From NCBI GenBank assembly GCA_964439265.1, contig CAYTOA010000012.1:11029-75028 (forward strand): DNA of 64,000 nucleotides. Direction: 5' to 3'. The notes under the pieces are model-generated. The model worked only from the letters and a program-made list of their open reading frames with translations, had not been told where the DNA came from and ran no database searches. Below, piece after piece: positions 35,232 to 54,369 of this stretch (the first letter of the stretch is position 1; each line of letters opens with the position of its first letter). The stretch is from an uncultured Chitinophagaceae bacterium (lineage in GTDB: Bacteria; Bacteroidota; Ignavibacteria; UBA10030; UBA8401). The position numbers and the translations under genes were made by a program.

Positions 35232-35304
35232 GGGCCGTTAGCTCAGCTGGGAGAGCGCGTGAATGGCATTCACGAGGTCAGCGGTTCGATCCCGCTACGG
35301 TCCA
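35232..35304 (+). tRNA. tRNA-Ala (anticodon GGC)
   Basis: Hand-folded cloverleaf: acceptor GGGCCGT/ACGGTCC with a G3:U70 pair, D-arm GCTC..GAGC, anticodon arm CGTGA-ATGGCAT-TCACG, T-arm AGCGG-TTCGATC-CCGCT. Confidence 0.9.
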
Positions 35305-35313
35305 CATCAAACG

Positions 35314-35346
35314 AAAAAAGGGAACAACATTGTTGTTCCCTTTTTT
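35314..35346. terminator. Bidirectional intrinsic terminator between convergent tRNA genes
   Basis: AAAAAA-GGGAACAAC-att-GTTGTTCCC-TTTTTT. A perfect 9-bp stem flanked by A and T runs. Confidence 0.8.
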
Positions 35347-35350
35347 ATTG

Positions 35351-35425
35351 TCGGGGCGGGGAGATTCGAACTCCCGACCTCTTGGTCCCGAACCAAGCGC
35401 TCTAGCCGGGCTGAGCCACGCCCCG
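35351..35425 (-). tRNA. tRNA-Pro (anticodon CGG)
   Basis: The reverse complement folds as CGGGGCG-TG-GCTC..GAGC-G-CTTGG-TTCGGGA-CCAAG-AGGTC-GGGAG-TTCGAAT-CTCCC-CGCCCCG-A. Confidence 0.9.
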
Positions 35426-35528
35426 TATTTCGTTATACTGTTTTGACTTCGTGGTGCGCATCAATATACGAACGATTGCCCAATTTGTCAACGAAATGAA
35501 GCTGCTCAAAAAATTCTTCATTTTGTAC

Positions 35529-35584
35529 TTGACAAATTCCTTCCGATAGTATATATTCCACTATAGTAAAAATATATACACTAT
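35529..35584 (+). promoter_or_regulatory. lexA promoter (TTGACA-17-TATATT) with overlapping ATAGT/ACTAT palindromes (candidate operator)
   Basis: -35 TTGACA at 35529-35534, a 17-nt spacer, and -10 TATATT at 35552-35557. ATAGT-N9-ACTAT spans 35546-35564 and ATAGT-N12-ACTAT spans 35563-35584. There is also an 8-bp inverted repeat GTATATAT/ATATATAC. Confidence 0.5.
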
Positions 35585-35599
35585 GTAAAGGATTTCACT

Positions 35600-36265
35600 A
35601 TGCCATCGCCATCGGTCGAACTCACCTCCCGTCAGCAAAAGGTCTATAACTTTGTGAAGCAGTTCATCGAGGACAACAGTTACCCTCCGACGCTGCAGGA
35701 AATTTCCGACAAGTTGAAGATCCAGCCGAGCGCCGCCCGGATGCACCTTCTTCTTATGGAAAAGAAGAAGGCGCTGCGGTACGTTCCGAACACTTCACGC
35801 GGCATCGAACTGCTGCATGAACGGCCGTCCGGCATTCCGATCTACGGAAGTGCGCCGGCAGGGCATCCGTTCACCTCTCAGGAAAACATGGTCGATACCT
35901 TCGAGGTCCGGCGCTACATTACTGCGTCCGACGATTTGTTCGGCATTTACGTCCGGGGCGACAGCATGAAGGATGCGCAGCTTTCTACCGGCGACCTGCT
36001 CTTCGTCGACCCCAAAAAGGACCCCCGTAACGGCGAGATCGTGGTCGCCGCCGTGGAAGGAGAGCCGACGATCAAACGGTATTATAGAGAAGAGAGCGGC
36101 GTGGTGCTTCGTCCGGAAAATAAGAAATACAAGCCGATTCACGTCAGCAGAAGCGACGAAAATTTCAAAGTACTCGGCGTTGTGGTCGGGATGATCCGCG
36201 CCCTCGACAAAAAGAAGATCGACGCGTTGACCGATGAATACAAAGCGTACTCAAAGGCATCGTGA
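35600..36265 (+). CDS. lexA: LexA repressor (S24 peptidase)
   Basis: N-terminal wHTH LTSRQQKVYNFVKQFIEDNSYPPTLQEISDKL. Cleavage region IPIYGSAPAGHPF. Catalytic GDSMKDA (Ser) and PTIKRYY (Lys). Confidence 0.9.
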   Translation: MPSPSVELTSRQQKVYNFVKQFIEDNSYPPTLQEISDKLKIQPSAARMHLLLMEKKKALRYVPNTSRGIELLHERPSGIPIYGSAPAGHPFTSQENMVDTFEVRRYITASDDLFGIYVRGDSMKDAQLSTGDLLFVDPKKDPRNGEIVVAAVEGEPTIKRYYREESGVVLRPENKKYKPIHVSRSDENFKVLGVVVGMIRALDKKKIDALTDEYKAYSKAS

Positions 36266-37837: not shown

Positions 37838-38080
37838 TTGGAAGAAAAGCTGAAGAGTTTTTTAGAGGGACGCAAGCGTTACAATGGTGAGATTTATGAG
37901 TTCGTTCTGAAGTGTGGCTTTTTGCCAAAGCATGCCAATGAAGTTTTTTTCAATTGGCAAAACAAGGATATATTAATTGTGGAAACTGATAAAGGAGAAA
38001 AAGCGCGGAAACGTGCATTCTACATAGCGTATAAATACTATCACGATGACAGCAAAAAAGTTAAATTCGAATTAAGGTAA
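37838..38080 (+). CDS. Hypothetical 80-aa ORF abutting the DUF5131 gene (possible remnant of a partner gene)
   Basis: TTG start, with the stop 1 nt before the DUF5131 ATG. A 33-codon ORF (37752-37853) in another frame overlaps its 5' end, which would be compatible with a frameshifted or truncated gene. AT-rich like its neighbour. Confidence 0.35.
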   Translation: MEEKLKSFLEGRKRYNGEIYEFVLKCGFLPKHANEVFFNWQNKDILIVETDKGEKARKRAFYIAYKYYHDDSKKVKFELR

Positions 38081-38081
38081 T

Positions 38082-38807
38082 ATGGCACAGTCAAGCATTG
38101 AATGGACTGAGATGACGTGGAACCCGACAACCGGGTGTTCCAAAATCTCCGCTGGATGCAAATTTTGCTATGCCGAGATCATGTCTCGTCGGTTGCAAGG
38201 GATGGGCATTGAAAAGTATAAAGATGGATTTGCTGTAAGAATGCATCCGGACGCATTAAGGATTCCATACTCTTGGAAAACATCAAAAATTGTTTTTGTT
38301 AATTCGATGAGTGATTTATTCCATGAAAACATTCCTTTAGAGTTTATTCAACGGGTTTTTGATGTGATGAATGACAATCCGCAGCATGTTTTTCAGATAC
38401 TCACGAAAAGAGCTGAGAGACTTTTAAAGCTTCATTCAGGACTGAAATGGACGCACAATATTTGGATGGGGGTTTCCGTTGAGAACGACAAAGTGAAGCA
38501 CCGGATCGACTTATTACGGAAGACAAAGGCAAAGGTGAAATTCCTTTCCTGCGAGCCTCTTATTGGACCGCTTTACGATATGAATCTAAAGAAACTAGAT
38601 TGGGTGATTGTCGGCGGTGAAAGCGGGCATCGGCCGCGGCCAATGGAAACGGATTGGGTTTTGGATATTCAGGGGCAATGTAAAAAAGCCGATGTCGCTT
38701 TCTTTTTTAAACAATGGGGTGGAAGAAATAAAAAGAAAAATGGCAGGCTTCTTAACGGCCAGACGTATGATGAGATGCCTGAAATGATGGAATTAGAAAA
38801 GGAATAA
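38082..38807 (+). CDS. Phage Gp37/Gp68-family protein (DUF5131), three-Cys motif
   Basis: MAQSSIEWTEMTWNPTTGCSKISAGCKFCYAE (IEWT..TWNP..GC..S.GC..CYA signature), ...VFVNSMSDLFHE..., FLSCEPLIGP, WVIVGGESG, FFFKQWGG. Confidence 0.8.
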   Translation: MAQSSIEWTEMTWNPTTGCSKISAGCKFCYAEIMSRRLQGMGIEKYKDGFAVRMHPDALRIPYSWKTSKIVFVNSMSDLFHENIPLEFIQRVFDVMNDNPQHVFQILTKRAERLLKLHSGLKWTHNIWMGVSVENDKVKHRIDLLRKTKAKVKFLSCEPLIGPLYDMNLKKLDWVIVGGESGHRPRPMETDWVLDIQGQCKKADVAFFFKQWGGRNKKKNGRLLNGQTYDEMPEMMELEKE

Positions 38808-38811
38808 TTCG

Positions 38812-39294
38812 ATGAAAATATTCAGGATGCCGATTTTATCTGTTCTTACGCTTTGCCTCTTTGGTTTTCTTAGCTTTACACTGTATGCCCAGGACTCATT
38901 ACATTCCACAACAAAGGGATCAGCCGTGACAGTCTCAAACAACAATCTTCGCATCGATTATATAGAGTTTTCCGCCGTCGATATTGCAGCGGTAAGGAAT
39001 TTTTACTCGGCCGTTTTTGGTTGGCAATTTACCGACTACGGGCCCGACTACACGAGTTTCGAGGATGGCCGGATCAGCGGAGGGTTCGCGAAGGCGCCAT
39101 CGGTCTCCGGCAGCGGCGTGCTCGTGGTGATCTATTCGTCCGAACTGGAAAAAACGAAAGATGCTGTCGTTCGCAACGGCGGGAAAATAACGAAACCGCC
39201 GTTCAATTTCCCCGGCGGTTGGCGTTTTCACTTTACCGACCCGAGTGGAAATGAGCTTGCTGTATGGAGTGAGAATAACGGCGTCAAAAAATAG
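38812..39294 (+). CDS. Secreted VOC (glyoxalase/bleomycin-resistance fold) family protein
   Basis: Signal-like N-terminus MKIFRMPILSVLTLCLFGFLSFTLYAQ. IDYIEFSAVDIAAVRNFYSAVFGWQFTDYGPDY...FHFTDPSGNELAVWS. Confidence 0.7.
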   Translation: MKIFRMPILSVLTLCLFGFLSFTLYAQDSLHSTTKGSAVTVSNNNLRIDYIEFSAVDIAAVRNFYSAVFGWQFTDYGPDYTSFEDGRISGGFAKAPSVSGSGVLVVIYSSELEKTKDAVVRNGGKITKPPFNFPGGWRFHFTDPSGNELAVWSENNGVKK

Positions 39295-39410: not shown

Positions 39411-39636
39411 AAGTGTTCTTGATTTTCCAGAGGTCTACATAATAAGTATATGACTTAGTTTTTGTCTGTTTCCTTTTGTGCTTCTTCGTGTCCTTCGTGG
39501 ATCGCCCGGTAAGAAGAATGTAACGACATAGCAACAGGGTTGTTGAAATACTCAAGCCCGGTTTTGTGAAGAGCGCCGTCATGCGTTCTCTCGAAACCGG
39601 GTTTTTTGTTTGTCTTCATCTCACAAGGAGGCTGCA

Positions 39637-40560
39637 ATGATTACACTGGACCAGCAAAAAATTTTTGTGGGGATGGGGGGCTGGGATTTGCCCCCATTCC
39701 ATCAATACTTCTACCCGCCAAAGCCGAAGAAGGGGTTTCGGAAACTGGAATTCTACGGCCAGTTTTTCGACAGCGTGGAAATCAACGTCACGTTTTACAA
39801 TACGGCTCTTACGGCCGACCACGCTCGCCGCTGGCTCAGTGACGTTGCTGCGAATAGGAATTTCATGTTCACGGTAAAACTGTATCGCGGGTTCACGCAC
39901 ACTTTTGATGCGACGAACGACGACGTCCGTTCTGTCCGGCGCCTTCTTGAGCCGATTGCCGAAGCGGGAAAACTGGGAGGCATCGTGGCACAGTTTCCGC
40001 AGTCGTTCGTCAACACGTCCGAGCGTCAGCAATATCTCCGGCAGTTCAGCAGGGTCTTTTACCCGCACCGCGTGTTTGTCGAGGTGCGGCACGCTTCGTG
40101 GAATGATCCCGCCGTCTTCAACCTTTTGCAGGAGAACAACCTGCACCTTGTGAACGTCGACTTGCCGCCGGTATGGAATTCAATGCCGTTGACGTCGATG
40201 GCGTGGAATAACGTTGCCTATTTCCGGATGATGGGGAGGAATGTTAAAACGTGGAATCATCCTGAGCTGGGGGAGCGGTACGACTATTATTACAACGAGA
40301 AAGAGCTTGCCGATCTGCTGGAACGAATGAAGAAATTGCGGGGACAATCGAACACCCTTTTTGTCGTATTCCATAACGACCCGGAAGCAAACTCGCTTGT
40401 CAACGGTTTTCAGCTCCGGCATCTCGTGCGAAAGCCCCCGGTGCTTGTTCCGCGGGGAATGATCCGGGCATTCCCCGAACTCAAAGGAATCAGCTCATCG
40501 GTGAACGTGCTGCACCCCCTCTTTGCGGAAGAGGAAATTCCTGTGGTTGAACGCCGTTGA
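39637..40560 (+). CDS. DUF72 (YecE-like) protein
   Basis: IFVGMGGWDLPPFHQYFYPPKPKKGFRKLEFYGQFFDSVEINVTFY matches the DUF72 N-terminal signature. AAGGAGG sits 5 nt (CTGCA) upstream of ATG 39637. Confidence 0.8.
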   Translation: MITLDQQKIFVGMGGWDLPPFHQYFYPPKPKKGFRKLEFYGQFFDSVEINVTFYNTALTADHARRWLSDVAANRNFMFTVKLYRGFTHTFDATNDDVRSVRRLLEPIAEAGKLGGIVAQFPQSFVNTSERQQYLRQFSRVFYPHRVFVEVRHASWNDPAVFNLLQENNLHLVNVDLPPVWNSMPLTSMAWNNVAYFRMMGRNVKTWNHPELGERYDYYYNEKELADLLERMKKLRGQSNTLFVVFHNDPEANSLVNGFQLRHLVRKPPVLVPRGMIRAFPELKGISSSVNVLHPLFAEEEIPVVERR

Positions 40561-40567
40561 AACGCGT

Positions 40568-41293
40568 CTATTTTTTCTTCAGAGGCTCTACGCATTCCGG
40601 CACGTCGTTGCGGGAGGGACTGACGACGGTGGAAACGCGGTATGCTTTCATCTTTGCGGCGGGATAGGGGAGGAGGAATTTTTTGAGGGACGCGGTATCT
40701 TTGAACGCTCTGTCCAGCCACTGCTCAAAATGCTTCTCGGGGAGGATGACCGGCATGCGGTCGTGGATATCTCCCACGAGCTCATTGGGAACGGTGGTGA
40801 TGATCGTGTAGGAAGGAAATTCTTTCCCTTCGGAATCTTTCCAGACGGAAAAGAGGCCGGCAAACATGAACGGCGATTCGTCTTTCATGCGGATGCACAT
40901 CGGCTGTTTTTCGATGACCTGCCGTTCTGCGCCGCGGATCTCTTTGGTGACTGCCGTCTTTTTCCACTCATAAAATCCGTCGGCGGGAATAAGACAACGG
41001 CTTCCTTTGAAATAGGTAGTGTAGAGTTTGCTCTGGTCCAGCGTTTCCGCCTTTGCATTGAACGTTGAAAACGCGACCTTGCCGTCTTTCGACCAGTGGG
41101 GGACGAGTCCCCAGCGCATCTGTTCTGCGGCGAGAGCGTCGTTCCTGACGGCAAACACAGGCATCCGTTGAAGCGGGGAGACGTTGTACCGGGGCAATTC
41201 CTCGAAAACTTTGCCCGCGGTTTTAAGACCCTGCAGCAGTGCAAATGTCGCAAAGACTTTTTTGCCGTCGATCAGGACATAACGTCCGCACAT
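40568..41293 (-). CDS. SOS-response-associated peptidase (SRAP / YedK-like abasic-site processing protein)
   Basis: Starts MCGRYVL (catalytic Cys2), then ...RYNVSPLQRMPV..., WGLVPHWSKD, ...NAKAETL..., DGFYEWKK, ...DRMPVIL. The ATG at MCGRY is chosen over the longer track ORF. Confidence 0.85.
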   Translation of the reverse strand: MCGRYVLIDGKKVFATFALLQGLKTAGKVFEELPRYNVSPLQRMPVFAVRNDALAAEQMRWGLVPHWSKDGKVAFSTFNAKAETLDQSKLYTTYFKGSRCLIPADGFYEWKKTAVTKEIRGAERQVIEKQPMCIRMKDESPFMFAGLFSVWKDSEGKEFPSYTIITTVPNELVGDIHDRMPVILPEKHFEQWLDRAFKDTASLKKFLLPYPAAKMKAYRVSTVVSPSRNDVPECVEPLKKK

Positions 41294-41332: not shown

Positions 41333-42055
41333 ATGGCCCCAAAAAATCCACTGCTGGCAGTGCCAACGTCGTATCAGGCCCTGGCACGGCATTTTGCCGC
41401 ACCTGCCGGCAAGACCTATCTATTGTATGGAGACAAACCGATCTTCCTGCTCTCGCTGAAAATGGCCGCGTACGGCATCACCGGCGGCTCTTCCGTTGCC
41501 GTCGTCGACGGCTGCAACAGGTTCAACGTTCATTTCCTTTCTCAGTTTGCGCGGGAAAGGAAACTGAACATCGACGATTTTCTCCACCATATTTTCGTTT
41601 CGCGCGGCTTTACCTGTTACCAGATGGAACAGGCGATCGTTCACCGGCTCCCGTTGTTTCTCGGCACGATCCATTCGCGCACAGCGATGATCTTCGGCCT
41701 CCTCGACACGTTCTACGACCAGCAGGCATCGTTACGGGAAGTCCGGCAGATCCTCGGCCGGGTCGTCGCCGCTCTTCAGGAAATGAAATCAGACGGGATC
41801 TCCGTGCTCCTTGTGTGCAGAAAACTGAATGTGCTGCCGAAAGAACGGAACGAGTTGTTCACAACATTGCAGGCAGGCGTCGATACGATCTACCGATTGC
41901 AAGCGGATGACGCCGGGCTGAAACTTTTTCTTGAGAAAGGAGTGCTCGACGATGGGACGAACAGTGCCGACCTTCACGAACATTATCAACGACGAGATCG
42001 CAAGCTGGTCGAAGTATCGCCGCGGTCTTCGAAAAGACGACCAGGAGCTTTTTGA
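41333..42055 (+). CDS. RecA-fold protein with degenerate Walker A (ImuA/KaiC-like by layout)
   Basis: GKTYLLYGDKPIFLLSLKMAAYGITGGSSVAVVDGCNRF occupies the strand-P-loop-helix position of RecA-like proteins but lacks GxxxxGK[ST]. TAMIFGLLDTFYD resembles Walker B and ISVLLVCR resembles a following strand. ATG at 41333 is 39 bp from the SRAP start. Confidence 0.5.
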   Translation: MAPKNPLLAVPTSYQALARHFAAPAGKTYLLYGDKPIFLLSLKMAAYGITGGSSVAVVDGCNRFNVHFLSQFARERKLNIDDFLHHIFVSRGFTCYQMEQAIVHRLPLFLGTIHSRTAMIFGLLDTFYDQQASLREVRQILGRVVAALQEMKSDGISVLLVCRKLNVLPKERNELFTTLQAGVDTIYRLQADDAGLKLFLEKGVLDDGTNSADLHEHYQRRDRKLVEVSPRSSKRRPGAF

Positions 42056-42233
42056 CGATATCTTCCGCGCGGCCAAGCTGCACCTGGCGGAGAATTTTTA
42101 CGCCATGCGTTCGATCCCGTTCGAAAGCATCGCCATCTCGATCGCCGTCGAACAGCGGAAATTGATCAAGCGCCTTCACGAACGTATTCTTCAGCTGGAA
42201 GAGCGGCTCGCAGTTTCACATGACGGTCAATAA
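41952..42233 (+). CDS. Hypothetical 93-aa protein, middle gene of the PolB cassette
   Basis: MGRTVPTFTNIINDEIASWSKYRRGLRKDDQELFDDIFRAAKLHLAENFY... AAAGGAG lies 9 nt upstream of the ATG. Overlaps the preceding gene by 104 nt in another frame. Helical by composition; no family recognised. Confidence 0.5.
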   Translation: MGRTVPTFTNIINDEIASWSKYRRGLRKDDQELFDDIFRAAKLHLAENFYAMRSIPFESIAISIAVEQRKLIKRLHERILQLEERLAVSHDGQ

Positions 42234-42241
42234 GGAGCGAC

Positions 42242-44530
42242 ATGCATACCACGGTGAACGGCTGGTTGTTCGACCTGTACCCATCGCCGAAAGGCATCAC
42301 GCTGTGGCTCATCGACCGGAGCGGGACGAAACATTGTTGTTTCCGCAGGTACCGTCCGTCGTTTTTTCTCCATGTAAACGATTCCGACGCGAAGCGCGCT
42401 GCTGCGCTCGGTGCCCGCTCACCGGTCGAAGTGTCGCTGGGGCGCACGACGAAAAAGGAAATCTATTCCGGCGACCCGTGGGATGTCGTGCAGGTGTACG
42501 TTCACGATACGACGCGCTTCAAGGAAGCGGTATGGTATTTCGAGCGGTTCTTCCCTCATTTCGCGTTCTATAATTCCGACATTCTTGTTGCTCAATTATT
42601 CTTGTATGAGACGAAGCTTTTTCCGCTGGCGCTTGGTGATTACGAGATCGATGAAACGGGAGAAGTGACCGGCTGGAACATCACCGATTCCCGCGAGGCG
42701 TTGGAGTACGACCTGCCGCCGCTCTCCGTGATGTCGATCCGCAATGCGAACGACTTTGTTCCGCCCAAATACCATACGACCTTCCAGCTTGAGATCTCGT
42801 ACGACGATGCGACGTATGCACTCGAACAGCAGGACCCGGTCGAAGTGGTCGAGGCGCTCAACTGGCACCTCCATCGCTGCGACCCGGATGTGCTTCTTAC
42901 CGAGTACGGAGACTCGCAGCTGATGCCGGTGATTGCAAGGCTGTCGGAACAGCACCATATTCCGTCGCTCCTGAACCGCGACCATACCGTCGGCTACACG
43001 ACGATGAAGGAATCGAGTTTCTTCCAGTATGGAAAGGTCGTTCACAAAGACGGCGCATTCGAACTCGCAGGGCGCTGGCATATCGATGTCGATAATTCCT
43101 TTACCGTCGCAATGTCGGAACTGGACGGCCTTTTCGAGATGGCGCGCCTGACCCAGACGCCTGCGCAGCGGCAGGGGCGGGCGAGCATCGGCACGTCGAT
43201 GTCGTCGCTGCAGCTTTCATGGGCCTATCAGAACAATATCTTGATCCCGTCGAAGAAGCGTGAACCGGAAGAATTCAAGTCGGCGGCGACGCTGCTGCTC
43301 GCAGACCGGGGCGGATTGATCTTTAACCCGCCGCTCGGTTTCCACGAGGATATCGCCGAGCTTGATTTCGTTTCAATGTATCCCACGATCATGGTGGAGA
43401 AGAACGTTTCCCCGGAGACAGTGAATTGCCGATGCTGCAAGAATACAAAAGTACCGGAACTGGAATATACGATCTGCGAGAAACGGGAGGGGATCATTCC
43501 CGCAACGCTCCGCACCGTCGTCAAGAAACGGGCGTACTATAAGGCGATGAAGAAGAAATACAAAAGAAAGGACGAAGCCCTTTTTCGCCGGTACGACGCA
43601 CGGCAAAATGCCCTTAAATGGATGCTGGTGAGCTGCTTCGGATATCTCGGCTATAAGAATGCCCGTTTTGGGAGGATCGAAGCGCACGAATCGGTCAATG
43701 CATTTTCCCGCGATGCGATCCTGGCGGCAAAAGAGATCGCGGAGACGAACGGTTTTGAAATGCTTCATGCGATCATCGACTGCATGTGGCTGAAGAAAAA
43801 AGGGGCGACAGAAATGGATTACCAGGCACTCTGCCGGACGATCACGGAAAATGTCGGTATCGATATCTCAATCGAGGGGATCTATCGCTGGATACTCTTT
43901 CCGGCGTCGAAACAAGATCCGGAGATCACGACCGCGAACCGATACGTCGGATGGTATCAGACGGGAGAGATGAAAATGCGGGGCATTGAATCGCGCCGGC
44001 ATGATACGCCGAAATTTATCAAAACGATGCAATCGGCGATGCTGGAGAAGATGGGGGAGGCGCACAGGGTGGAGGAGTTGCGTGCGATGCTTCCCGATCT
44101 GCTCGAAATTGTCCGTGAATATCTTTCACTCTTGCGCAGCGGAAAGGCGAATCCGATGGAGCTTGTGCTTCGCCGTCATATTACCAAAGAGGCGGAAGAA
44201 TACACGAATAACAGCATCAGCGCCGTTGTCTCAAAGCTTGTGGAAAGCATGGGCGTCCATCTCTCTGCCGGCGAATCGATCGAGTTCATCATTCTCGATC
44301 AATCGGGCAAACAGAAGCCGGAAAAAGCAAAGCCGCTGGCGTTGTATGCATTCGAAGACGGCTACGATATCGAAACATACACCGGATTTACATTGAAGGC
44401 AGCGGCAACGCTGCTGGAACCATTTGGATATTCCTTCGAAGCGCTCGAGAAACACTTTACCATCAGTCAAAAGAAGCCCCGCAATACCGTCCGAAACGAT
44501 GAAGCCACCCTGGAACTGGAGTTCATGTGA
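42242..44530 (+). CDS. Family-B DNA polymerase with degenerate 3'-5' exonuclease motifs
   Basis: Motif A ELDFVSMYPTIM, motif B LKWMLVSCFGYLGY, motif C position MLHAIIDCMW, and KxY-like MKMRGIESRRHDTP. The N-terminus GWLFDLYPSPKGITLWLIDRSG...RPSFFLHV is like archaeal/Pol II-type PolB. The Exo I/II/III consensus residues are not found. AGGAG lies 5 nt upstream of the ATG. Confidence 0.8.
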   Translation: MHTTVNGWLFDLYPSPKGITLWLIDRSGTKHCCFRRYRPSFFLHVNDSDAKRAAALGARSPVEVSLGRTTKKEIYSGDPWDVVQVYVHDTTRFKEAVWYFERFFPHFAFYNSDILVAQLFLYETKLFPLALGDYEIDETGEVTGWNITDSREALEYDLPPLSVMSIRNANDFVPPKYHTTFQLEISYDDATYALEQQDPVEVVEALNWHLHRCDPDVLLTEYGDSQLMPVIARLSEQHHIPSLLNRDHTVGYTTMKESSFFQYGKVVHKDGAFELAGRWHIDVDNSFTVAMSELDGLFEMARLTQTPAQRQGRASIGTSMSSLQLSWAYQNNILIPSKKREPEEFKSAATLLLADRGGLIFNPPLGFHEDIAELDFVSMYPTIMVEKNVSPETVNCRCCKNTKVPELEYTICEKREGIIPATLRTVVKKRAYYKAMKKKYKRKDEALFRRYDARQNALKWMLVSCFGYLGYKNARFGRIEAHESVNAFSRDAILAAKEIAETNGFEMLHAIIDCMWLKKKGATEMDYQALCRTITENVGIDISIEGIYRWILFPASKQDPEITTANRYVGWYQTGEMKMRGIESRRHDTPKFIKTMQSAMLEKMGEAHRVEELRAMLPDLLEIVREYLSLLRSGKANPMELVLRRHITKEAEEYTNNSISAVVSKLVESMGVHLSAGESIEFIILDQSGKQKPEKAKPLALYAFEDGYDIETYTGFTLKAAATLLEPFGYSFEALEKHFTISQKKPRNTVRNDEATLELEFM

Positions 44531-44635: not shown

Positions 44636-47600
44636 ATGAACGTTGCCCCGCTGTTCATTCGATGCACCTCTTTTCCATCACTCCACCACACATCCGGCGA
44701 CCGCGCTCCTCAATGTGAATTTCACATCCTCGCAGATATAAGAGACAAATACGAGTTTGACGAATCCCTCTTTGCCGCCAACGGCAACGTCATCTTTCCG
44801 AATTTTCATGCCGCAAGGATTTTTGCGAAGAAGTTGAACGACGCACGCGATCTCGCTCGGTTCCCGGAACGGGGAGTAAGGGCCGGACAGTTGAACGCGC
44901 TGGGGTTGATCGACGAGATCTATCATTACATCCTGCGGGTGTATGAAGAGACTGCCAATCCGGGCGTCTTCGGGCGCGCGCACGGTTATCTGAAAACGAA
45001 TCTTGGCGAGGATGGACTCCAAACAACGATCGATTCATTCGTCTCACTCTTTCCGCCGCTGAAGGTCTACAGGAAAGAATCACCGGCGACAGAATACCTG
45101 GCCGGAATAACAGAGGGACGGTCAAACCAGCACATCACAATCGAAGAATTGATACTGTTGTATTTGACAAATTTCAATCCTGCCGCCTCGAAGTTCGACG
45201 AGTTATTTTCCGACAAAACACTTGCTGAGAAAACGAAATACCAGGCACTCATCAACACGCTGGAAAATTTTTTCAGAACTGAAAGAACATTCGGTCCGGA
45301 GAACCAATTCATTTTCGATCTGCTGCGTGCTCCCATTCTTGCCCATCCCGACAGCCTCGAGGCTCAGCTGGGATACATCAAATCAAAATGGGGGATGCTC
45401 CTTTCATCAAAATTCCTGGACAGAATTCTCGGAAGCCTGGACTTGCTTGACGAGGAGAACAAGGTCGTGATTGGCGGAGGCGCTCAGGCCGTTGTTCCTT
45501 CATACGACGCTGCCGGCTCTCCCGGCGAACGCTCATACGGCTCTTTTGAGGCTGAGCGTTTCACCTCGGACCTGGAGTGGATGCCGAAGGTTGTGCTTCT
45601 CGCAAAAAACACCTACGTATGGCTGGATCAACTTTCGAAAAAATATCACCGCTCGATTACCAAGCTGAACGAAATCCCCGACGAAGAATTGGACCAGCTG
45701 GCCAGATGGAATTTCACCGGCTTGTGGCTGATCGGTTTGTGGGAGCGGAGCAATGCGTCCAGAAAGATCAAGCAGTGGACCGGAAATCCCGAAGCAGTGC
45801 CTTCGGCGTATTCTCTCTATGATTACGAGATTGCGCAGGACATCGGGGGCGAGGAAGCGTTTCAAAACTTGAGCAGCCGCGCATGGCAGCGCGGAATTCG
45901 TCTTGCAGGAGACATGGTGCCGAACCACATGGGGATCTATTCGAAATGGATTATCGAGCATCCTGAATATTTTATCCAATCGGAGTATTGTCCCTTCCCA
46001 AATTATCGTTTTTCCGGCGGAGACCTTTCGGAGAACCAGGACGTTCAACTTCGTATTGAAGACGGCTATTGGTCGAAAAAAGACGCGGCCGTTGTTTTCC
46101 AAAGAATTGACAATCGGACCGGAAGAACGACCTACGTCTACCACGGAAATGACGGGACGAATATGCCGTGGAACGACACCGCGCAATTGGATCTGCTCCG
46201 CGCAGACGTGCGGGAAGCGGTCATCCAGACGATCTTCCATGTCGCCCGGAAATTCTCGATCATCAGGTTCGACGCAGCAATGACGCTCACCAAAAAGCAT
46301 TTTCAGCGGCTCTGGTATCCACAACCCGGAACAGGAGGGGACATCCCATCCCGCGCGGATCATGCATTAAGCAAAGAAGAATTTGACAAATTATTCCCGA
46401 GTGAATTCTGGCGGGACGTCGTCGACCGGATCAACCAGTACATGCCGAGTACGTTGCTCCTGGCGGAAGCATTCTGGCTGATGGAAGGATATTTTGTCCG
46501 CACGCTCGGCATGCACCGTGTCTACAACAGCGCTTTCATGCACATGCTGATGAAGGAAGAAAATGAAAAATATCATCAGCTCCTGAAAAATACCCTGGCG
46601 TTCAACCCGGAGATCCTGAAACGGTACGTCAATTTCATGAGCAATCCGGACGAACAGACGGCCATCGCACAATTCGGAAAAGACGATAAGTATTTCGGCA
46701 TTGTGTTGATGATGGTAACGCTACCCGGTCTTCCGATGTTTGGCCACGGCCAGATCGAGGGATATACGGAAAAGTACGGGATGGAATACAAACGGGCCTA
46801 TTACGACGAGTACCCGGACGGCCAGCTGGTCCTGCGTCACGAGCACGAGGTATTTCCGATCATGAAGAGAAGGCACCTCTTCAGCGATGTCAAGAATTTT
46901 GAAGTGTATGATTTTCAGGATTCGCGCGGACACGTCAATCAGAACGTGTTTGCATATTCCAACATGTCCGGCGGCGAGCGGGCGCTGATCTTTTTCCACA
47001 ACAAGTTTCAGGAATGCAAGGGTCGGATCAGGATGGCAGCGCTGAAATCAACCGCCGAAGGAGGGGAGAGAAGGAGTGAAGAGCGGTCGCTCGGCCAGGC
47101 GTTAGCGATAAACTACGGCGATAATTATTTCTATGTTTTCAAAGACTATAAGTCGGACCTGGAGTATATCCGCACTGGAAAGGAAATTCACGACCAGGGG
47201 ATGTACGCAGAACTGAGAGCCTTTGAATACCATATCTTTTTAGACTTTAGGGAAATTTACGATGACGGCGGAGATTACCATGCCATCGCCCGAAAACTGC
47301 ATGGCGGAGGCGTTCAAAGTATCGGCTGCCTCCTTGTGGAAATGCGTCAGGCACCGATCCATGAGGCCGTAATAGCCCTTCTTTCTGAAGAGATTGTTAC
47401 TACATTTAAGGCTCATTCCCTGCGCACAGCCAGAACTGCAGCGAAGGCGATTCAGATCGGAGAAATCCAGCTTCGGTTCGAGTCATTTTCGAACGAAGTT
47501 AAAAAGCATACCAGATCGAGCGCAGATCTCAAAGCCATCGGATCGATGTTCCTGCACGACATTGAAGCGGCAGGTGCAATCTGGCGGATCCTGCAGCCCG

Positions 47601-48217
47601 TTCGCGGGAAGAAGAGCAAGAAGCCTAGCACTGATTGGGAAAGCGGATTCCGAAAATCGAAATTATTCAAAATGCTTCCGCAATCGGCGGGCAGCGGACT
47701 CCTGTTCTCCTGGATAATCGTCGATAAGCTTTCACAATTCGGTCCGGAAGACGCTCCTCCTTCAGCAAGAACTGAATTGATTGCGTCCTTGAACCTTGAT
47801 AAACCTTTCCGGAAGACGTTCCTCGCAGCCGGGCGGAGCCGCGAGCAGCTTCAGAGAGATATTTGTCTTTTGCGAATCATGACAAAGCATCGAAGTTTTC
47901 TCACCGCTGCAGATGAACATAATCGCTTCTTACGAATGGAACAGCTTTTTGACGACTTTGATGTGCGTGAATTCATTAAAGTAAATCTCTACAACGGAAC
48001 GTGGTATTACAATAAAGAATGTTTCTCAGAGATGATGCAATGGCTTTTCTTCGTTTCACTTATTCATGAATGGAACATCGAGGAGAGTCCGGGGTCGGCA
48101 AACGTGCTCAAGGCATCGCAGAAATTCTCATTCATGAATGAAGTGGAGCAGCTTTCCGACCGGTCCGAATATGATATTGAAAAGCTGCGCAAAAATTTAT
48201 TACTGGAAGAAACATGA
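44636..48217 (+). CDS. Large (1193 aa) alpha-amylase-family (GH13-like) protein with long uncharacterised N- and C-terminal regions
   Basis: The central region carries GH13 conserved regions: GIRLAGDMVPNHMG (region I), IIRFDAAMTL (II), LLLAEAFWL (III) and FMSNPDEQT (IV, with NPD instead of NHD). The start codon is uncertain. Confidence 0.65.
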   Translation: MNVAPLFIRCTSFPSLHHTSGDRAPQCEFHILADIRDKYEFDESLFAANGNVIFPNFHAARIFAKKLNDARDLARFPERGVRAGQLNALGLIDEIYHYILRVYEETANPGVFGRAHGYLKTNLGEDGLQTTIDSFVSLFPPLKVYRKESPATEYLAGITEGRSNQHITIEELILLYLTNFNPAASKFDELFSDKTLAEKTKYQALINTLENFFRTERTFGPENQFIFDLLRAPILAHPDSLEAQLGYIKSKWGMLLSSKFLDRILGSLDLLDEENKVVIGGGAQAVVPSYDAAGSPGERSYGSFEAERFTSDLEWMPKVVLLAKNTYVWLDQLSKKYHRSITKLNEIPDEELDQLARWNFTGLWLIGLWERSNASRKIKQWTGNPEAVPSAYSLYDYEIAQDIGGEEAFQNLSSRAWQRGIRLAGDMVPNHMGIYSKWIIEHPEYFIQSEYCPFPNYRFSGGDLSENQDVQLRIEDGYWSKKDAAVVFQRIDNRTGRTTYVYHGNDGTNMPWNDTAQLDLLRADVREAVIQTIFHVARKFSIIRFDAAMTLTKKHFQRLWYPQPGTGGDIPSRADHALSKEEFDKLFPSEFWRDVVDRINQYMPSTLLLAEAFWLMEGYFVRTLGMHRVYNSAFMHMLMKEENEKYHQLLKNTLAFNPEILKRYVNFMSNPDEQTAIAQFGKDDKYFGIVLMMVTLPGLPMFGHGQIEGYTEKYGMEYKRAYYDEYPDGQLVLRHEHEVFPIMKRRHLFSDVKNFEVYDFQDSRGHVNQNVFAYSNMSGGERALIFFHNKFQECKGRIRMAALKSTAEGGERRSEERSLGQALAINYGDNYFYVFKDYKSDLEYIRTGKEIHDQGMYAELRAFEYHIFLDFREIYDDGGDYHAIARKLHGGGVQSIGCLLVEMRQAPIHEAVIALLSEEIVTTFKAHSLRTARTAAKAIQIGEIQLRFESFSNEVKKHTRSSADLKAIGSMFLHDIEAAGAIWRILQPVRGKKSKKPSTDWESGFRKSKLFKMLPQSAGSGLLFSWIIVDKLSQFGPEDAPPSARTELIASLNLDKPFRKTFLAAGRSREQLQRDICLLRIMTKHRSFLTAADEHNRFLRMEQLFDDFDVREFIKVNLYNGTWYYNKECFSEMMQWLFFVSLIHEWNIEESPGSANVLKASQKFSFMNEVEQLSDRSEYDIEKLRKNLLLEET

Positions 48218-52518: not shown

Positions 52519-54369
52519 ATGAAACGGCACGTTCTCTCGCTTTGTGTCATTCTTTTCTCCCAAGGCTTATTCGCTCAAGATCCCCGTGTGGATAAGGTCG
52601 AACCGCCGAACTGGTGGGCGGACATGAAGCACAACAAGATCCAATTGATGGTTTACGGCGAAGATTTGGACAGCGTGCAAGTGAAGTCCCTTTCAAGTGA
52701 TATCACTGTGCTGAAAACATATCCACTTTCCAACTCTTCCTACGCGTTCATTGATATTGAAATCAAAAAGAGCGCACAACCCGGCATACCAACGCTGGCT
52801 CTTTCGTCACGCAAGGGGAGTACCAAGCTGAGATTCCCTTTGTTCAAGCGAAGAAAGTCTGATGCCGAGCACCACGGATTCAATTCTTCCGATGTCATTT
52901 ACCTTATTGTTCCCGATCGGTTTGCAAACGGAGATACAACGAACGACAACATCAAGGGGATGCCGGATGGGCTGAGACGGGGCGACCCGCTTGGTAGGCA
53001 TGGGGGCGATTTACAAGGCGTTATTTCCAAGCTCGATTATTTCAACGGCCTCGGCGTTACGACGTTGTGGCTTACTCCCGTGATCGAAAATAATGCACCG
53101 TTTGTAAGCTATCATGGATACGCAGCAACCGATTTGTATAAGGTCGATGCTCGCTTTGGAAGCAATGATCTCTATAAAGAGTTTGTTCGTCAGGCTCACG
53201 AACACAAACTTAAAGTAATTATGGATCACGTGAACAATCATATCAGCATCAATCATCCCTGGATCAAAAACCTTCCGACACCGGATTGGTTGAACGGGAC
53301 GCCGCAAAGTCACCAGGGGCCGTTTCATTCAAAGCCGGAATTAGATGACATTCACACCGATTCGCTGACAAAACAGCGGGCGCCGAACGGCTGGTTCAAT
53401 GATCAGATGCCCGATTTAAACCAGACCAACCCATTCGTCGGAGAGTATTTGAAGCAAAGCACACTTTGGTGGATTGAGTTCAGCGGAGTTGACGGCATTC
53501 GCGAGGATACGTACCCGTACATCGATCCAAAATTCCGGGAGGAATGGTGCAGGTACGTTTTGGATGAATATCCGCGATTCAATATTGTCGGCGAAGTATG
53601 GGTGCAAGACCCTGTGTTCGTTGCTCCGTATCAACGAGGAAGTTATTTCCCGCGAAGCATTAAACCGGAGCTTCCCGCTCTTATGGATTTTGGTTTATAC
53701 GACGCGTTTCTCAAGACGTTTGCCGACACTGCCGGGAGGATCGAGAATGTGTTCACCACTCTTGCGAAAGATTTTCTTTATCCAAACCCGGACAACCTTG
53801 TGATCTTCCTTGACAACCACGACATACGGCGCACCATGTTCAACCTGAACGGCGATGTGAAGCGCTTTAAGCTTGAACTGATGACACTCTTAACGACGCG
53901 CGGGATTCCGCAACTGTTGTACGGAACGGAGATCGGAATGAAAGGGGGGACGGAAGATGGTACGCTTCGGGCAGATTTTCCCGGAGGCTTCCCGAACGAT
54001 CAGCGCGATGCATTTTCAGAAAATGGAAGAACCAAGCAAGAAAACGATATTTTTGATTTTACACAACAGCTTTTGAAGATTCGTTCGACACACAAAAGCC
54101 TTCAGCGAGGCTCGCTAATTCACTACAAACCAAGGAATGAAGTGTATGTCTATTTTAGAATATTGAATAATGAGCGTATCATGGTGGTGATCAATCATAA
54201 CACCGGAAAACAAGTTGTCGACCTCTCGCCTTTCGTATATCATTTGCTTGGAGGCGATGCATTGCGGAATGTGATAACGGGGACTGAAACAAAATTGTCC
54301 GGAACTAGATATCTTGATCTTGAAGGAATGTCTGGGATGATCTTTGAAATTGTCCATGCGCAACAATAG
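52519..54369 (+). CDS. Secreted GH13 alpha-amylase / cyclomaltodextrinase-like enzyme
   Basis: Signal peptide MKRHVLSLCVILFSQGLFAQ. DRFANGDTTND, GGDLQGVISKLDYFNGLGVTTLWLTP, VIMDHVNNHIS, GIREDTYPY, VGEVW, FLDNHD. Confidence 0.9.
   Translation: MKRHVLSLCVILFSQGLFAQDPRVDKVEPPNWWADMKHNKIQLMVYGEDLDSVQVKSLSSDITVLKTYPLSNSSYAFIDIEIKKSAQPGIPTLALSSRKGSTKLRFPLFKRRKSDAEHHGFNSSDVIYLIVPDRFANGDTTNDNIKGMPDGLRRGDPLGRHGGDLQGVISKLDYFNGLGVTTLWLTPVIENNAPFVSYHGYAATDLYKVDARFGSNDLYKEFVRQAHEHKLKVIMDHVNNHISINHPWIKNLPTPDWLNGTPQSHQGPFHSKPELDDIHTDSLTKQRAPNGWFNDQMPDLNQTNPFVGEYLKQSTLWWIEFSGVDGIREDTYPYIDPKFREEWCRYVLDEYPRFNIVGEVWVQDPVFVAPYQRGSYFPRSIKPELPALMDFGLYDAFLKTFADTAGRIENVFTTLAKDFLYPNPDNLVIFLDNHDIRRTMFNLNGDVKRFKLELMTLLTTRGIPQLLYGTEIGMKGGTEDGTLRADFPGGFPNDQRDAFSENGRTKQENDIFDFTQQLLKIRSTHKSLQRGSLIHYKPRNEVYVYFRILNNERIMVVINHNTGKQVVDLSPFVYHLLGGDALRNVITGTETKLSGTRYLDLEGMSGMIFEIVHAQQ

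Follow-up and report, generated by a model that had tools for sequence, protein, structure and literature searches.

PolB2 as the probable identity of a family-B DNA polymerase with a decayed exonuclease lobe, encoded beside iRadA and PPB2 in an uncultured Ignavibacteria genome

What kind of enzyme is the family-B DNA polymerase encoded in a 64,000-nucleotide stretch (the window) of contig CAYTOA010000012.1, from an uncultured bacterium that GTDB places in the Ignavibacteria? Its gene is an ATG-initiated open reading frame (ORF) of 762 amino acids at 42242..44530 on the forward strand, to which all coordinates below refer unless the reverse strand is named, and the Shine-Dalgarno sequence AAGGAG lies directly 5' of it. 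A preliminary description, made by eye, had read the product as a specialised, non-replicative polymerase devoid of proofreading. We conclude that the ORF very probably encodes the catalytic subunit of a bacterial PolB2 "mutasome", the product of an operon with the order iRadA-PPB2-PolB2. The feature is real, and it belongs to an already described and catalogued family, not to a new type: descriptions of the PolB2 class go back to 2008-2014, and detailed analyses of it date from 2020-2026. The preliminary description, made without sight of the operon context, did not recognise this known class, and it was right except in the label that it gave to the KxY motif.

Polymerase core and exonuclease lobe

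How complete is the polymerase? A Pfam search of the ORF returned PF00136 (DNA_pol_B) alone, at residues 322-708 (E 6e-36); the exonuclease family PF03104 was not detected in the 762-residue protein by that search. In a sequence search against solved structures, the top matches were archaeal PolB enzymes of Pyrococcus and Thermococcus (E ~1e-39). Relatives were sought among 1.84 billion representative proteins, which gave 4969 matches at E <=0.001 and 798 at E <=1e-30 (clusters at 50% identity); the window protein and 57 relatives that are 30-69% identical make up the family alignment of 58 sequences used throughout. The AlphaFold model built on this alignment has a pLDDT of 93 and a pTM of 0.90, and the last 17 residues (746-762; pLDDT <50) are its sole part predicted to be disordered. 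Foldseek matches the model to full-length, DNA-bound KOD/9N PolB with a TM score of 0.75, and the N-terminal half is confidently modelled as a PolB-like lobe. Together, PF00136, the alignments to Protein Data Bank (PDB) structures, AlphaFold and Foldseek describe 42242..44530 as a PolB2 catalytic subunit carrying a decayed, inactive exonuclease lobe.

The positions of the polymerase motifs were fixed by alignment to the Pyrococcus/Thermococcus PolB structures. Motif A, DFVSMYPT (43364..43387; residues 375-382), aligns with DFRSLYPS and supplies the catalytic metal ligand D375, and motif B, KWMLVSCFGYLGY (43616..43654; residues 459-471), aligns with KILANSYYGYYGY; both motifs lie where they had been read by eye. 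Motif C, LHAIIDCMW (43763..43789; residues 508-516), aligns with LYIDTDGLY, so that IID (511-513) stands for DTD and the second Asp, D513, is alone retained, again as first proposed. D375 and D513, which we take to be the two direct metal ligands of family-B polymerases, are invariant in all 58 sequences. Position 511, by comparison, is Ile, Leu, Met, Tyr, Val or Asn, and Asp in none of the 58. The motif B lysine, K459, is present in 57 of 58 sequences, and Y380-P381 as well as R585, R586 and D588 are nearly invariant.

One motif had been mislabelled. The block taken for KxY, MKMRGIESRRHDTP, pairs with the downstream TRGLEIVRRDWS block of archaeal PolB and not with KxY. The archaeal KKKY aligns instead with A565-N-R-Y568, within ANRYVG (43934..43951; residues 565-570; aligned to TKKKYAL), which makes N566-R567-Y568 the true equivalent, with Lys replaced by Asn. 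The family consensus here is NRY[FY]G: the three columns hold Asn in 44, Arg in 49, and Tyr in 46 or Phe in 12 of the 58 sequences.

A further motif is specific to PolB2. At residues 355-358 (43304..43315) the protein reads DRGG, in which D355, G357 and G358 are invariant in the family alignment and position 356 is Arg or Lys in 54 of 58 sequences; the spacing from DRGG to IID is 156-158 residues in the window protein and 148 in Sis Dpo2, the PolB2 of Sulfolobus islandicus. A D(K/R) motif approximately 150 residues before motif C is conserved in PolB2, and it has been modelled in contact with the N-terminal arm of the small partner protein PPB2 (PMC11791011). The polymerase fold of the window protein is complete and confidently modelled, with both metal-binding Asp residues, the motif B Lys and DRGG kept.

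Could such a polymerase nevertheless be dead? PolB2 was originally predicted to be a catalytically dead pseudo-polymerase that acts as a scaffold or regulator only (Rogozin 2008; Makarova 2014). The window protein has the substitutions on which such a prediction draws: motif C is without the first Asp of DTD, Asn stands for the Lys of KxY and no exonuclease site is left, changes that are read as inactivation in PMC4104785. A dead enzyme, however, is not expected to conserve its active site as strictly as these relatives do across 30-69% identity, and Dpo2 of S. islandicus and S. solfataricus, which also carry IID, are robust polymerases. We therefore consider a dead PolB2 improbable, though it is the best placed of the alternatives that we weighed.

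Separately, we note that eight PolB2 relatives (P0126, P0162, P0163, P0168, P0171, P0177, P0181 and P0210) are ~1240-1310 residues long, and that each aligns with the window protein in two parts, with the break at residue 466, within motif B. Such a break hints at inteins inserted into motif B.

What remains of the exonuclease? To judge from the alignments and the model, the DnaQ-like lobe of PolB2 is partly decayed and its exonuclease active site is gone. The segment LSVMSIRN (42722..42745; residues 161-168) is a probable remnant of the Exo I strand without DxE: it lies on a predicted beta-strand (163-168), and conserved acidic residues are absent from its columns in all of the family alignment. 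A local match of QLEISYDDATYAL to Pfu IMISYADENEAKVI makes LSVMSIRN the likelier Exo I strand. We set aside another candidate for a surviving Exo I, the tripeptide D133-Y-E135 on a neighbouring predicted strand, whose two acidic columns are acidic in 43% and 53% of relatives. The Exo II remnant, TEYGDSQLMPVI (42899..42934; residues 220-231), aligns with TYNGDNFAFPYL and has L227 at the position of the catalytic Asp, where 49 of 58 relatives have Leu, Ile or Val.

Exo III is missing altogether. The alignment of the family profile with P. abyssi PolB falls into two parts: profile positions 5-257 pair with residues 22-267, and 298-739 with 353-781. Between them, the ~85 archaeal residues 268-352, which contain YxxxD, face the ~40 profile positions 258-297, and ~45 residues are therefore missing exactly at the location of Exo III. 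In the window protein this is the shortened stretch GRWHIDVDNSF...ARLTQTP (43070..43162; residues 277-307), from which the Exo III helix is deleted. With neither Exo II nor Exo III left, DYE could not restore a DEDD site even if it were a remnant of Exo I. The by-eye claims that Exo I lacks DxE, that Exo II is lost and that the third segment is too short all bear out, and the profile alignment to solved PolBs revealed neither an intact NxxxFD nor an intact YxxxD, the palm Asp residues being present.

Operon partners, conservation and neighbours

Which family of polymerases does this one belong to? The genes directly upstream decide the identification. iRadA, PPB2 and PolB2 are adjacent on one strand, in that order. 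Makarova et al. (2014) described PolB2 together with a ~90-residue protein, arCOG07300, and an inactivated RadA, and found the trio plus lexA in bacteria also (PMC4104785). Timinskas et al. (2025) named the partners iRadA and PPB2 and reported iRadA-PPB2-PolB2 as the sole bacterial order; the same study described the MGRT arm of PPB2, the decayed exonuclease domain, the 401-IID-403 of S. islandicus PolB2, and the enrichment of lexA, SRAP and DUF72 genes near PolB2 operons (PMC11791011). Among the operons in its supplement is one from Ignavibacteriales, classed as "1a (iRadA-PPB2-PolB2)", which has a DUF72 neighbour and the entry ...MLHAIIDCVWL / 513 / IID. The window protein reads nearly the same as this string and shares the residue number 513, and the 61-residue stretch from motif B to motif C is, by eye, ~87% identical to a relative classed as PolB2 in that supplement. 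The PolB2 group has since been named G2 (Timinskas et al. 2026, PMC12926913).

The window iRadA (41333..42055; 240 residues) is a member of the RadA/Rad51 family without functional Walker motifs, and its last 34 codons overlap PPB2. In single-sequence Pfam and NCBIfam searches of iRadA and PPB2 nothing was significant (TIGR02236, E 0.012, and DUF5494, E 0.004, each fell short of its cut-off). Because single-sequence matches to RadA were weak, a family profile of 38 orthologues was compared with the PDB; over the core only, it matches RadA (E 1e-9), followed by Rad51 and DMC1, to E 1e-5. The P-loop is degenerate, reading LLYGDKPIF where GSGKT is expected, and there is no GxxxxGK[ST]; the Walker B Asp has become G122, in IFGLLD; and ~25 residues precede the first core strand. 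By these comparisons iRadA is a RadA/Rad51 core that lacks both the ATPase residues and the N-terminal helical domain.

PPB2 (41952..42233; 93 residues) is a small three-helix protein that begins MGRTVPTFTN. Its residues M1, G2 and R3 are invariant among 29 orthologues, and every PPB2 that we recovered begins MGR(T/N/L) except one, whose start codon is GTG. A single-sequence model of moderate confidence (pLDDT 74) places helices at 8-24, 28-51 and 57-92 behind the free N-terminal MGRT arm. PF26485 (DUF8156) is found on one orthologue, that of locus L001.

Is this arrangement a local accident? A scan of related loci, restricted to one genome per species, gave at least 599 confirmed matches (related loci bear L numbers). 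The best 80 loci belong to Bacteroidota, Ignavibacteriota, Chlorobi-like bacteria, Kryptoniota, Thermodesulfobacteriota and Armatimonadota, and further to Chloroflexota, Nitrospirota and Acidobacteriota, with two from Bathyarchaeia. Where at least 1300 nt of upstream sequence is available, PPB2 is found upstream on the same strand in 59 of 63 loci and iRadA in 54 of 63, in the order iRadA-PPB2-PolB2; the phyla represented are Bacteroidota, Ignavibacteriota, Chloroflexota, Nitrospirota, Acidobacteriota, Thermodesulfobacteriota and Armatimonadota. In one Bathyarchaeia locus (L081) iRadA lies upstream and PPB2 is below detection at the threshold used. We also observed three PolB2 homologues (L006, L021 and L050; 72%, 58% and 42% identical) with iRadA and PPB2 undetected in the 4-6 kb upstream; these may be orphan or second copies.

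This conservation bears on the possibility that the gene belongs to a mobile element or prophage, such as a casposon, a pipolin or a phage with its own PolB. Two tRNA genes 6.8 kb upstream and a nearby DUF5131 gene, which has a weak match (E 1e-4) to the phage-type family GP88, would fit such an origin. A three-gene operon in stable order across phyla, with matches in so many species-representative genomes, would not; nor would the absence of integrase, terminal protein, Cas1 and capsid genes among the neighbouring ORFs scanned, the unremarkable G+C content, or the resemblance of the enzyme to primer-dependent archaeal structures of the PolB3/PolB1 type. A mobile polymerase is accordingly very unlikely.

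The neighbours of the operon are those of a PolB2 locus. Divergent from it lies a gene for an SRAP protein (YedK-like abasic-site protection; 40568..41293, reverse strand; PF02586, E 2e-63), whose product starts MCGRY, and beyond that a gene for a DUF72 protein (39610..40560; PF01904, E 5e-48). DUF72 is a TIM barrel related to UV-damage endonuclease (PMC11791011), and its gene is kept beside the operon in L002-L005, L007, L014 and L024; SRAP and DUF72 together accompany the operon in the closer relatives of the window. A canonical LexA repressor is encoded 5 kb upstream (35600..36265; PF01726 and PF00717), and LexA-type genes lie upstream of the operon in approximately half of the related loci. 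Between SRAP and LexA are found DUF72, a glyoxalase/bleomycin-resistance-like gene, a DUF5131 gene and three small genes.

Several observations on this region stand by themselves. The glyoxalase/bleomycin-resistance-family protein (38812..39294), hydrophobic at its N-terminus, is encoded between DUF5131 and DUF72, a place that it keeps in L002-L005. The DUF5131 gene (37838..38807) is preceded by an 80-residue ORF for a GMT-like winged helix-turn-helix protein, and it matches the NCBIfam "radical SAM mobile pair protein A" weakly, well below cut-off; DUF5131 genes occur near PolB2/LexA loci in at least four other genomes (L001 3653..4309, L004 1928..2644, L013 1187..1876 and L062 9626..10246). 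Just 5' of lexA, tRNA-Ala(GGC) on the forward and tRNA-Pro(CGG) on the reverse strand (35232..35425) converge on a perfect 16-nt hairpin (35314..35346). Directly downstream of the operon, and unrelated to the PolB2 finding, are an unusually long alpha-amylase-family protein of 1193 residues (44636..48217) and, further on, a cyclomaltodextrinase-type enzyme (52519..54369).

Clamp-like tail, gene overlap and LexA

How might such a complex reach its substrate? The disordered tail of PolB2 ends in TLELEFM (44507..44527; residues 756-762), a candidate beta-clamp-binding peptide. TLELEF[MVL] is conserved at the PolB2 C-terminus in the closest clade, and in sister clades the corresponding position is taken by KQIPLF, QELPLF or xDLF. 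In Anaerolineales and Terriglobia it is iRadA that ends in such a motif, QLRLF or QLNMF; the window iRadA is without one. Bacterial operons carry the beta-clamp motif on either PolB2 or iRadA (PMC11791011), and a clamp-like tail on PolB2 with none on iRadA fits this published rule. The speculation in the preliminary description that the tail is clamp-binding thus gains from its predicted disorder and from the motifs of the sister clades (QIPLF, ELPLF and DLF), and loses from its own non-canonical letters; a beta-clamp motif in TLELEF is plausible on sequence grounds.

The window iRadA has another kind of tail. Its ORF runs 104 nt into PPB2 (41952..42055, the first 35 PPB2 codons), PPB2 being in the +1 frame, and the overlap yields a basic 34-residue extension (…RKLVEVSPRSSKRRPGAF). 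An overlap of 104 nt, or of 83, 89 or 107 nt, is present in ~25 related loci; the exact 104-nt form occurs in the window, L002-L005, L009, L013, L017, L024, L027, L028, L035-L037, L040 and L072, which represent several phyla. When synonymous codons were resampled, the frame was open to at least codon 34 in 38-43 of 64 loci against ~23 expected, a modest excess, these loci being mutually related; for the window itself the simulated probability is 0.06. The frame is open, too, in loci where iRadA ends earlier. Because the conserved PPB2 codons F34-D35 (TTT GAC) create the TGA stop of iRadA, the overlap is probably largely a by-product of these codons and mostly incidental. Were it under selection, it might couple translation of the two genes and so set a 1:3 ratio of iRadA to PPB2, or provide a new DNA- or partner-binding extension. 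That clamp binding moved in this Bacteroidota/Ignavibacteriota clade to the TLELEF of PolB2, with iRadA gaining the basic tail of 34 residues in its stead, strikes us as a doubtful idea. A programmed frameshift to an iRadA-PPB2 fusion was set aside: the sole T-rich run (CTT TTT CTT) would favour -1, and the frame of PPB2 is +1.

Is the operon under LexA control? The lexA promoter (35520..35600), which L002 and L005 conserve, has TTGACA-17-TATATT followed by the palindromes ATAGT-N9-ACTAT and TAGT-N12-ACTA, which form a candidate autoregulatory LexA box. Neither palindrome pattern recurs elsewhere within the window, and inspection by eye of the 39-bp spacer between SRAP and iRadA did not bring out GGA-N5-TCC or CTAA-N5-TTAG, two motifs of Bacteroidetes.

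Several points weigh against the PolB2 assignment and against what may be drawn from it. The TLELEF tail differs from the canonical QLxLF. An operator common to the lexA promoter and the region 5' of iRadA was not found, so that LexA control of the operon is something that we infer. Two NCBIfam models, NF004416 and NF004418, match the protein over its full length, at 393 and 373 bits, under their cut-offs of 516 and 692; from this coverage we infer that they are PolB2-like models. The catalytic activity, the extender role, the 1:1:3 stoichiometry and the damage induction that we ascribe to the window system would all be transferred from work on Sulfolobus and from in silico models. The literature so far holds no biochemically characterised bacterial PolB2. 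Finally, the assignment was made by sequence comparison and gene context.

With these points in mind, we propose the following for the PolB2 complex. DNA damage would induce the operon, as the literature suggests. PolB2 would then join one iRadA and a PPB2 trimer, the contact between PolB2 and iRadA being made through a motif like that of Rad51 oligomerisation, and one PPB2 MGRT arm would insert near the active site, where it could reach both DRGG and the DNA; all three of these steps follow published AlphaFold-Multimer models (PMC11791011). The beta clamp would recruit the complex, in this clade through the disordered TLELEF peptide of PolB2. Finally, to go by the biochemistry of archaeal Dpo2, the complex without proofreading would extend mismatched or lesion-opposed primer termini and so allow damage to be tolerated at the cost of mutation.

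PolB2 among known polymerases

How does the window system compare with those already known? From the bacterial PolB2 (G2) operon (PMC11791011, PMC12926913) nothing essential differs. The gene order, IID at 513, the inactive exonuclease lobe, the D(K/R) motif as DRGG, the MGRT arm of PPB2, an iRadA without N-terminal domain and Walker motifs, and the SRAP, DUF72 and LexA neighbours are all alike, as would be a clamp-type motif on one of the two larger subunits, in the window system a candidate; Ignavibacteriales members are listed in the supplement. What sets the window apart is that its clamp-like peptide, here on PolB2, is TLELEF and not QLxLF, and that its iRadA has the 34-residue tail, read in another frame from the first codons of PPB2.

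The archaeal Dpo2 enzymes of S. islandicus and S. solfataricus (PMC8764526, PMC7390963) are likewise exonuclease-free family-B polymerases with IID, with both partner genes and in a damage-linked context, and the window PolB2 presumably shares their extender role in translesion synthesis. S. islandicus Dpo2 is active, exonuclease-free and distributive; it extends mismatched and lesion-opposed termini and inserts poorly opposite lesions, and among the polymerase genes of that organism dpo2 alone is reported to be essential for mutagenesis after damage (PMC8764526). In contrast to these archaeal systems, compared here by their published descriptions, the window system has a bacterial host, a gene order that is fixed where the archaeal one varies, a beta clamp in place of PCNA, and LexA in place of Orc1/Cdc6 as a neighbour. 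PolB2 membership, the Dpo2 biochemistry and the iRadA-PPB2, SRAP, DUF72 and LexA context together support the earlier view of a specialised, non-replicative enzyme without proofreading.

The resemblance to Escherichia coli Pol II (PolB, group G1) raises one more alternative. Pol II is also a family-B, SOS-linked polymerase with a C-terminal beta-clamp motif and "extender" behaviour, unlike PolB2 in having an active DEDD exonuclease, an intact DTD and a single subunit. That the window enzyme is instead an accurate polymerase of the Pol II or a replicative type, its exonuclease motifs overlooked, draws on its membership of family B, the LexA-containing neighbourhood and the Pol II-like clamp tail, and it is the least probable reading of all: the profile alignment has neither the Asp of NxxxFD nor room for Exo III, the intact Exo I/II/III and DTD that mark Pol II-type (G1) enzymes are missing, Pol II structures match the profile over the polymerase domain only (E 5e-32, against 6e-112 for archaeal PolB), the scores of NCBIfam Pol II models, 20-61 bits, are far below their cut-offs (570-1435), and iRadA and PPB2 are partners foreign to Pol II.

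More distant systems offer analogies to PolB2. Eukaryotic Pol zeta (Rev3-Rev7-Pol31-Pol32) is an exonuclease-dead family-B extender in a multisubunit complex; it is no orthologue of PolB2, and the proteins that accompany it are unrelated. Similarly, Pol V (UmuD'2C-RecA) and ImuA-ImuB-DnaE2 combine a damage-linked polymerase with a RecA/Rad51-family protein and a small subunit, and are recruited by the clamp. Their catalytic subunits, however, are of the Y or C family and not of family B, and their small subunits are unrelated to PPB2.

Finally, what does the identification mean? It leaves the current picture of the PolB2 family unchanged, and its main value is one of correct annotation: genes in metagenome-assembled genomes of Bacteroidota and Ignavibacteriota that are called "DNA polymerase domain-containing protein" or "DNA polymerase II" are PolB2 catalytic subunits. 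Sulfolobus Dpo2 is said to have misfolded on expression in E. coli, and a mesophilic bacterial PolB2 such as that of the window is possibly a convenient subject for biochemistry. The PolB2 group is widespread, and the three-protein system to which the window polymerase very probably belongs is, by homology, likely to act in translesion synthesis and mutagenesis.

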